Positions 54,219-54,372 of a stretch of DNA of 64,000 nucleotides are shown piece after piece. The notes below the pieces were generated by a model. That model made no database searches and was not told the DNA's origin. It saw nothing but the letters and a program-made list of their open reading frames with translations. The translations under genes and the position numbers were made by a program. The stretch is from Chlamydiota bacterium. Its GTDB lineage: Bacteria; Chlamydiota; Chlamydiia; Chlamydiales; SM23-39. Within the stretch, counting starts at the first letter, position 1. Every line of letters starts with the position of its first letter. Location of the stretch: the NCBI GenBank assembly GCA_038534095.1, contig JBCAXK010000002.1, positions 8,790-72,789 of the forward strand, in the 5' to 3' direction.

Positions 54219-54372
54219 TGTGGATCTGTTCATAACTCCCCTTTTTCCTAGACAAAATCGGTGTTCATAACTCTGTTCATAAACTGATCATAACCCCCCG
54301 GTTATGAACAGAGAAAAGTTATGAACAAAGTTATGAACAGAAAAAACCGGGGTTATGCACAAATCTTCCACA
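54219..54372. promoter_or_regulatory. Inverted array of ten DnaA-box-like 9-mers (TTATGAACA/TTATGCACA family)
   Basis: The left arm, read as the reverse complement, has TGTGGATCT 54219, TGTTCATAA 54227, 54262 and 54274, and TGATCATAA 54285. The right arm has TTATGAACA 54302, 54319 and 54331, TTATGCACA 54353, and TCTTCCACA 54364. The centre is CTGATCATAAC-cccccg-GTTATGAACAG. Details are in the findings. Confidence 0.6.

Follow-up and report, generated by a model that had tools for sequence, protein, structure and literature searches.

We analyzed 64,000 nucleotides of DNA from a Chlamydiota bacterium (hereafter, the window). The subject of this report is a 265-bp intergenic spacer in the window, which contains a dense array of DnaA-box-like sequences and which we propose to be a chromosomal origin of replication (oriC). 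The spacer lies between the gene for a hexapeptide transferase and that for a major facilitator superfamily (MFS) protein. The features of the locus are as follows.

53483-54139, minus strand: hexapeptide-transferase gene, whose start codon adjoins the spacer
54140-54404: whole intergenic spacer, 265 bp, the proposed oriC, with a DnaA-oligomerisation region (54219-54372) and an unwinding module (54174-54218)
54174-54186, minus strand: pyrimidine run TTTCTTCTTACTT, which repeats the (GAA)n run imperfectly in inverted orientation
54187-54199: AT-rich core TATAGAGAAATAC (minus strand), 13 nt, a candidate DNA-unwinding element (DUE)
54200-54213, minus strand: purine trinucleotide repeat AGAAGAAGAAGAGA, (GAA)4, carried by the strand that reads 5'-TTATGAACA-3' at the double box
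54214-54218, minus strand: short spacer AGACC; with the first A of the repeat added, it separates the double box from the trinucleotide repeat by 6 nt
54219-54235, minus strand: abutting double box TTATGAACA-GATCCACA (9+8 nt), the phylum-conserved core TTATNAACA-NNTCCACA, pointing toward the unwinding module
54219: box, plus-strand word TGTGGATCT; on the minus strand, it supplies the 8-nt half of the double box, GATCCACA
54227-54235, minus strand: box TTATGAACA (plus-strand word TGTTCATAA), the 9-nt half of the double box
54236-54248, minus strand: A5-G4 tract GGAAAAAGGGGAG, adjoining the double box on its upstream side
54262-54270, minus strand: box TTATGAACA (plus strand, TGTTCATAA), in the conserved forward-box zone 26-75 bp upstream of the double box
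54274-54282, minus strand: box TTATGAACA (plus strand, TGTTCATAA)
54285-54293, minus strand: innermost box of the gene-proximal arm, TTATGATCA (plus strand, TGATCATAA)
54302-54310, plus strand: innermost box of the gene-distal arm, TTATGAACA
54319-54327, plus strand: box TTATGAACA
54331-54339, plus strand: box TTATGAACA
54353-54361, plus strand: box TTATGCACA, of the classical relaxed type
54364-54372, plus strand: outermost gene-distal box TCTTCCACA, of the TCCACA type with one mismatch to TTWTNCACA, in the conserved reverse-box zone 76-150 bp from the double box
54405-55640, minus strand: MFS gene, whose stop codon adjoins the spacer

Ten DnaA-box-like 9-mers are located within 154 bp (54219-54372); five face one way, and the following five face the opposite way. 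On the plus strand, the former read TGTnnATnn (54219-54293), and the latter read TTATnnACA or TCTTCCACA (54302-54372). Many of the boxes are 11-12 bp apart, start to start. The TTATGAACA type lies inside the array, and a TCCACA-type box ((N)NTCCACA) caps each outer end. The center of the array (54284-54311), CTGATCATAAC-CCCCCG-GTTATGAACAG, is an imperfect palindrome. An earlier note on this DNA had described the array, and its account of the ten 9-mers was correct in every coordinate and sequence, as were the length of the spacer, the start-to-start spacings (35, 12, and 11 bp in one arm, and 17, 12, 22, and 11 bp in the other), and the designation of TTATGCACA as a perfect classical DnaA box, since it matches TTATNCACA exactly. 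The note did not list the first spacing, of 8 bp, between the boxes at 54219 and 54227, which have one base in common.

The 64 kb contain six exact copies of TTATGAACA, always within the same 113 bp (54227-54339), and shuffled sequences contained 0.47 ± 0.72 copies (maximum, 2). The clustering of all six copies against this expectation excludes chance. The dispersal of the motif through the genome, which the earlier note had suggested checking, was examined at the scale of the window, and no exact copy was found outside the array. With up to one mismatch, 8 of the 31 matches in the window fell inside 135 bp. The exact double box TTATNAACANNTCCACA has a single occurrence in the window, on the minus strand at 54219-54235. 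As TTATGAACA is an instance of TTATNAACA, most boxes of the array are this lineage's version of that chlamydial box. Several DnaA boxes in a few hundred bp of non-coding DNA are what is expected of an oriC. In a closely related strain (SRR27352957), the spacer differs only at 54328 and 54144, both outside the boxes; this comparison is uninformative on selection, as about 98.5% DNA identity is too close.

The double box points into the module on its transferase side. Its two halves form a tandem pair with the upstream box closer to the consensus, as in the basal unwinding system (BUS) of bacterial origins; the Firmicutes listed in the table of Pelliciari 2021 have the same 9+8 geometry. The BUS also has at least three consecutive trinucleotides no more than 16 bp from the box; here, a 6-nt spacer is followed by (GAA)n in a fixed register. 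An AT-rich unwinding element beside the box array, as expected of an oriC, is present and is short and moderately AT-rich. The least stable 20-mers of the spacer begin at 54180-54185 and span 54180-54204 (dG about -20.3). The GAA/TTC inverted repeat can be folded into a hairpin with the AT-rich tract as the loop; the hairpin of the window is a weak one, at -5.3 kcal/mol (z = -1.6), whereas those of some relatives are strong, at -10 to -11 kcal/mol with z about -5 (up to -5.4). Extrusion of such a hairpin or cruciform is a possibility.

For the comparison with relatives, 18 transferase homologues were aligned, and the alignment was used to fetch 80 loci from GTDB species genomes. These were almost all from metagenome-assembled genomes (MAGs) of Chlamydiota, none closer than 47% identity, and stretches of about 20 kb or less were examined per genome. 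In many of the fetched loci, the densest TTWTNMACA cluster of the 20-kb locus was situated 250-450 bp upstream of the transferase gene. The core double box was present in about 60 of the approximately 75 related chlamydial loci examined. In the orientation of the gene, the common order consisted of reverse boxes, forward boxes, often an A-run and a G-rich stretch, the double box TTATNAACA-NNTCCACA, a 6-nt spacer, (GAA)3-5, an AT-rich tract of 12-25 nt, and (TTC)2-3. About 40% of the related spacers had an extra reverse box (TGTGGAAAA) past the (TTC) run. This distal box is absent from the window, which otherwise matches the layout of the relatives box for box. The comparison of orthologous spacers in related Chlamydiae, another check suggested in the earlier note, therefore revealed the same array architecture in most loci examined.

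The positions of the individual boxes were also conserved. Relative to the double box, 98 reverse boxes were found at -150 to -76 and 16 at +50 to +99 (39 loci), and forward boxes were concentrated at -75 to -26 (55 boxes) and at 0 (38 boxes), over a background of about two per 25-bp bin; the ten boxes of the window conform to this pattern. Among 61 modules from 53 loci, the 6-nt spacer between the double box and the repeat was fixed, and positions 7-17 after CACA were G-A-A-G-A-A-G-A-A-G-A (GAAGAAGAAGA) in 57-98% per position. The repeat was followed by about 14-18 nt in which the A+T fraction was at least about 0.85 at most positions, and then by a pyrimidine-rich segment. An A-run followed by a G-rich stretch (AAAAAGGGG-like) was observed directly upstream of the double box in many relatives, as at 54236-54248 in the window; a bend or a site for an accessory protein are possibilities for this stretch.

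Within the fetched stretches, the element was conserved at one place per genome, as expected of an oriC, except in a minority with two copies of the module (L007, L027, L030, L041, L060, L079, L097, and L103). Most of these pairs are in tandem and 0.3-0.9 kb apart (L007:9561/9840, L041:9514/9843, L079:9586/~9880, L030:8958/9807, L060:8980/9825, and L103:1236/1697). In L097 (4518/9802), the copies are 5.3 kb apart, and a region of about 250 bp is duplicated; in L027, the copies are divergent and 3 kb apart, at 9852 (+) and ~6700 (-). The twin modules may represent bipartite or duplicated origins. The side of the spacer with the hexapeptide transferase, ispA, and recA was conserved in 60-72 of 81 loci, and the opposite side was variable. 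In one locus (L013), hemB-greA-UDG (UDG, uracil-DNA glycosylase) is located across the spacer from the hemB-greA side of the window. This break in synteny at the spacer and the swap in L013 are expected of inversions hinged at an origin.

The cumulative GC skew of the window has its minimum at 53-55 kb and, at 400-bp resolution, within about 400 bp of the array. This check, too, had been suggested in the earlier note, and at the window scale it places the minimum at the spacer. Gene by gene, the skew at third codon positions (GC3 skew) on the right side of the spacer exceeded that on the left side, within either gene orientation. The related loci were oriented with the transferase gene on the plus strand, and the skew on the left was lower than that on the right in 48 of 52, with a negative left and a positive right in 36. 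As the convention of orientation could itself bias the skew, we performed a per-gene regression on orientation and side with 817 open reading frames (ORFs) from 52 chlamydial loci and 1000 locus-level bootstraps. With orientation controlled, the effect of side was +0.044 ± 0.004 at all positions and +0.086 ± 0.010 at third codon positions, and it was zero or less in none of the 1000 bootstraps. Averaged over the 37 loci with full flanks, the skew changed sign in a single step, located at the spacer: on the left, out to -9.6 kb, all 24 bins were negative, and on the right, out to +9.6 kb, 22 of 24 were positive. In 19 of these 37 loci, the 20-kb cumulative minimum was within 1.6 kb of the transferase gene start. 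In short metagenomic contigs, whose flanks are too short to carry weight, the left skew was lower than the right in only 11 of 16. A switch from negative to positive is the polarity of an origin, and the same convention was applied to Chlamydiae in the Waddlia genome paper. The strand-bias switch and cumulative skew minimum expected of an oriC are thus seen at the scale of the window and of the ~20-kb loci.

The boxes of the spacer are related to those of origins predicted for cultured Chlamydiae. In the supplementary table of Pelliciari 2021, which gives species-specific boxes from DoriC with the sequences written 3' to 5', the box for both Parachlamydia UV-7 and Simkania Z is AATAGTTGT, that is, 5'-TTATCAACA, which matches TTATNAACA. 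The boxes given there for Chlamydophila and Chlamydia are AAAAGTTGT (TTTTCAACA) and AAAAGGTGT (TTTTCCACA), respectively. Ori-Finder uses TTTTCCACA as the Chlamydiae box and includes hemB among its origin-adjacent marker genes. Thus, the two box types of the window are those already attributed to chlamydial DnaA. The same box family (TTATCAACA/TTTTCAACA/TTTTCCACA) is found in the predicted oriC of C. muridarum Nigg, C. trachomatis D/UW-3/CX, P. acanthamoebae UV-7, and S. negevensis Z. The origins from DoriC and Ori-Finder and the spacer of the window are also alike in being unlinked to dnaA and in lying among a gene set of hemB, thyX, hexapeptide transferase, and ispA. In Chlamydiae, which have two DnaA paralogues, the dnaA genes are not near the skew minimum (Waddlia genome paper); in the window, neither dnaA nor a recombinase gene was found among ORFs of at least 150 aa.

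Three neighboring genes are needed in what follows; their coordinates confirm that, as the earlier note stated, the ParA/pGP6-D pair is 5 kb and hemB 22 kb away from the array.

31711-32775: hemB
59123-59875: pGP6-D/UPF0137
59894-60649: ParA

We also scanned metagenome contigs of the Joint Genome Institute (JGI) with the motif only (TTATNAACANNTCCACAN6GAAGAAGAAGA, 25 specified bases). The scan gave 46 contigs, all of which had upstream box arrays, and about 30 of which had the transferase gene 86-381 nt downstream. In three contigs (L089:1604, L105:10453, and L106:580), the module was not upstream of the transferase gene and was instead located between thyX (minus) and hemB (plus); in L124, it was beside UDG, pGP6-D, ParA, and thrS. 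The position between thyX and hemB is significant, as the oriC of C. pecorum (Chlamydiaceae) was assigned upstream of hemB and as hemB is an Ori-Finder marker. These observations corroborate the statement in the earlier note that the putative origin was set next to hemB in at least one Chlamydia genome annotation. The window differs from the Chlamydiaceae origins in that its module is upstream of the transferase gene and 22 kb from hemB, and its own thyX-hemB spacer (in the block 29988-32775) is only 94 bp and contains no boxes.

A related double box is present in the DoriC-based origins of two Chlamydiaceae. In C. muridarum (bases 121-151), it reads 5'-TTATAAACA-GT-TTTTTCACA-A-CTTTTTCTC, and in C. 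trachomatis (720126-720162, reverse complement), it reads TATGAACA-TT-ATTTTCACA-GCTTTTTCTCTC. In both, 2 nt separate the boxes, and a pyrimidine run (CTTTTTCTC) comes directly after them, which corresponds to the canonical polarity of DnaA-trios; in the environmental lineages, by contrast, the boxes abut and lead into (GAA)n, then an AT-rich core, and finally (TTC)n. The BUS strings in DoriC for UV-7, Simkania, Waddlia, C. trachomatis, and C. pneumoniae had no match in the fetched loci, and homologue searches aimed at the loci of W. chondrophila and S. negevensis gave neither species among the matches listed. The identity of this spacer with the DoriC regions of UV-7 or Simkania could not be confirmed directly.

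Taken together, the identity of the motif, its clustering, the skew switch in the window and relatives, and the conserved architecture with its unwinding module argue that the spacer at 54140-54404 is very probably the chromosomal oriC of an uncultured, deeply branching member of Chlamydiota. The motif-only scan, the double boxes of Chlamydiaceae, the break in synteny, and the position of the least stable DNA at the AT core point in the same direction. The DnaA-box cluster that the earlier note offered as an oriC candidate is thus supported from three independent directions: the DoriC/Ori-Finder box family, the conserved orthologous spacer, and the skew switch. At such an origin, DnaA would fill the boxes, nucleating on the arrays, and the oligomer would extend from the double box toward the trinucleotide repeat. 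The AT-rich core (about 54187-54199), beside the start of the transferase gene, would then melt, and the helicase would be loaded at the melted core, from which forks would depart both ways.

The arrangement resembles known origin systems. The double box is oriented toward the module in the same sense as R1 toward the DUE of E. coli and as the BUS box pair toward the DnaA-trios. The E. coli oriC sequence used for comparison was checked against the E. coli row of the Pelliciari table. Like the window, E. coli oriC has two opposed arrays of about five DnaA boxes each, many of them 11-12 bp apart, and an unwinding element beside one array. At R1 as here, the strand with 5'-TTATCCACA-3' continues into the DUE, whose complementary strand is pyrimidine/T-rich. 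The window differs from E. coli oriC in having an A at position 6 of the box and no 13-mers, GATC clusters, or obvious IHF site; its DUE is a 13-nt AT core within an inverted GAA/TTC repeat, and the whole is far more compact (about 200 bp in total). With the BUS of the B. subtilis type (Richardson 2016, Pelliciari 2021), the window shares the abutting 9+8-nt pair, the 6-nt spacer (the rule being 16 nt or less), at least three trinucleotides in register, and the AT-rich tract. In the canonical BUS, the order is 5'-box-spacer-(CTA)n-3', and the trios are 3'-GAT-5' with the central A on the complementary strand, whereas the box strand of the window has 5'-(GAA)n-3' and the complementary strand has 3'-CTT-5' without a central A.

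Several observations weigh against the identification of the spacer as oriC. The first concerns the polarity of the trinucleotides, which we deduced from the rows for E. coli, Bacillus, and H. pylori in the Pelliciari table. The adenines of the box-proximal repeat are on the box strand, opposite to the canonical arrangement of DnaA-trios. The strand complementary to 5'-TTATCCACA-3' reads 3'-TCT TCT TCT TCT-5', which has no central adenine (3'-NAN-5'). With the 3'-to-5' notation of the table decoded, strand polarity rules out the (GAA)n run as canonical DnaA-trios; trios of canonical polarity (3'-AAA GAA GAA-5') are present only at 54178-54186, 32-33 nt from the box and past the AT-rich core. 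In addition, the core is only 13 nt long, with about 75% A+T over 20 bp, and TTATGAACA differs from TTATCCACA at position 6. The skew minimum was seen in the window and in partial loci rather than in a whole replicon, and a second sign change of the window near 13 kb, from positive to negative, is unexplained by a single origin. A fork moving rightward would meet most genes to the right of the site (MFS, UDG, pGP6-D, ParA, and thrS) head-on, as they are encoded on the minus strand. The presence of two module copies in several relatives implies that a copy need not be an active origin. Finally, in the literature searched, no interaction or footprint of a chlamydial DnaA with DNA has been demonstrated, and no experimentally tested chlamydial origin was found, origins having been assigned from skew and box counts; the one attempt at chromatin immunoprecipitation sequencing of DnaA, with DnaA1 and DnaA3 of Waddlia, gave data too poor for target calling.

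As for the sign change near 13 kb, GC and GC3 skew are positive in genes of both orientations at 1-13000 of the window and negative from about 13-14 kb. This terminus-like change, 40 kb from the proposed origin, could be due to a recent inversion or translocation across the replication axis or to foreign DNA.

Among the alternatives, only one retains some weight, namely that DnaA binds the spacer at a locus other than the origin, either a site of the datA/DARS type for titration or reactivation or a DnaA-controlled promoter through which the hexapeptide-transferase/ispA operon would be tied to the replication cycle. The array is directly upstream of the start codon of this operon, the module faces a co-oriented gene 90-380 nt off in most relatives, and DnaA has been described in the cited literature as a bifunctional initiator and transcription factor in Chlamydiae. 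However, the skew step coincides with the spacer across the phylum, the trinucleotide repeat in fixed register and the AT-rich core are features of unwinding rather than of an operator, the next downstream gene is on the opposite strand in L124 and at both copies in L097, and the DoriC origins of two Chlamydiaceae contain a related double box. We therefore consider this explanation improbable as a substitute for oriC, although DnaA could regulate the transferase-ispA operon alongside origin function.

It is less probable still that the spacer is a centromere-like partition site for the ParA and pGP6-D (UPF0137) proteins encoded on the chromosome. Type I partition sites typically have short repeats arrayed in both orientations, and thrS-ParA-pGP6-D was found no more than 10 kb from the spacer in 11-14 related loci and adjacent to the module in L124. 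Partition genes, however, are often near origins anyway. Moreover, the repeats fit the DnaA-box consensus, the spacer contains no parS-like site (TGTTNCACGTGAAACA), most loci with long flanks retain the array without ParA/pGP6-D within 10 kb, and neither the skew step nor the GAA/AT-rich module would be accounted for.

An operator array for another chlamydial regulator, such as a response regulator of the PhoB/ChxR type, is similarly hard to credit. It would explain the phasing of the direct repeats CTGTTCATAA at 11-12 bp, and these repeats resemble the E. coli Pho box, CTGTCATA(A/T)A. Nevertheless, the experimentally derived Waddlia motifs for PhoB (WNTNAARAAANTGNWAAATTT), Euo (TTAAAAACAAATTTT), and HrcA (the controlling inverted repeat of chaperone expression, CIRCE) do not match the 9-mer, and ten sites in opposed arrays, the phylum-wide skew step, and the unwinding module would be left unexplained.

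The earlier note had also considered a tyrosine-recombinase site of the Xer/dif type, with an 11-6-11 core at 54284-54311 and the flanking repeats as accessory sites. The sequence of the arms, an imperfect central palindrome with CATAA and TTATG as inner arms, is as the note gave it, but the geometry is not that of dif, since the gap from CATAA to TTATG is 8 bp (CCCCCCGG) rather than 6 and the spacer is GC-only. The innermost reverse-to-forward junction varies in spacing and sequence among relatives, the skew changes from negative to positive, which is the polarity of an origin, whereas dif is expected at a skew maximum, and no recombinase gene is present among the ORFs of at least 150 aa in the window, as the note itself had observed. 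The recombination-site reading has hardly any probability left. The same is true of a dispersed repeat or miniature inverted-repeat transposable element that holds DnaA-box-like words by chance, as, despite the terminal inverted symmetry, there is no second copy in the 64 kb and relatives carry the element at one syntenic place per locus.

Other signals were sought in the spacer. A structured RNA or riboswitch 5' of the transferase gene was rejected, as Rfam gave only chance hairpins far below the threshold. An intrinsic terminator of the MFS gene was rejected as the source of the symmetry, as the predicted terminator (54409-54430) is outside the array. No sigma-70-type promoter was found in the spacer, and the distance from TCCACA to a TATA-like core, which is 17-24 nt and variable among relatives, argues against a plain -35/-10 reading.

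Because oriC regions with boxes of the same family have been predicted computationally in cultured Chlamydiae, the oriC proposed here is an element of a known kind. New relative to the databases is the origin grammar shared across the phylum, notably the GAA repeat of non-canonical polarity, which is undescribed in the literature searched. [quoted passage not shown] This core has (GAA)3-5 in fixed register on the box strand, mirrored by (TTC)n across a short AT-rich core; it is often bracketed by inward-facing boxes and is always headed by the TTATNAACA and TTTCCACA-like box types. It is a speculation that the two box types are read by the two DnaA paralogues of the phylum. If the suggestion is true, the strand opening would be unlike the B. 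subtilis and E. coli models, for example, through a filament across the purine tract to the distal trios or through GAA/TTC extrusion. The GAA repeat could thus reflect a variant trio specificity, the use of distal trios, or extrusion of the inverted repeat.

For the window itself, the result is a sound oriC annotation. A compact fragment of about 230 bp carries the conserved box arrays, the double box, the trinucleotide repeat, and the AT core and is suitable for direct biochemical assay. The sequence signature also places the origin in fragmented chlamydial MAGs, which is of use for the orientation of contigs, growth rates from peak-to-trough coverage, and the recognition of origin-hinged inversions.

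The gene content of the window is typically chlamydial (a long GreA, pGP6-D/UPF0137, a Chlam_OMP-like gene, thyX-hemB, and thrS-ParA). The only exact public match to the window is a 20-kb Logan contig of SRR22824329, which is 100% identical. Beyond the near-identical strain, no homologue of the transferase exceeded 53% identity; the lineage is therefore a poorly sampled one.

Among the neighboring genes, the block of thrS, ParA, and the pGP6-D-like gene (UPF0137) at 59123-62584 is 5 kb from the proposed origin; among the 81 related loci, 11-14 have it no more than 10 kb from the orthologous spacer, and in L124 it is beside the module. This block is a candidate for an origin-proximal chromosomal partition system of plasmid ancestry. 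The ThyX ORF (29988-31616), which forms a divergent pair with hemB, is of double length (542 aa) and contains two Thy1 stretches. The window also has a tandem set of three porin genes of the Legionella_OMP family and, apart from these, a gene with a C-terminal match to Chlam_OMP (45213-48362 and 62670-63551). A similar tandem OMP set is located downstream of recA/glk in L003, and several further loci gave single tblastn matches to one OMP gene of the window at similar distances.

In three Logan contigs (L003:1, L004:1, and L005:1), which are all of those with the 49%-identical transferase gene, the sequence ends within the origin spacer or a short way upstream of it, an indication that the repeats or a local change in coverage disturb short-read assembly there. 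The nearest tRNA gene of the window is tRNA-Pro-GGG (56980-57056), 2.6 kb off. In L006, L013, L065, and L078, a tRNA-like sequence (GGGTGTAGCGCAGC...), recognized by eye, adjoins the distal end of the array, about 250-350 nt upstream of the double box.

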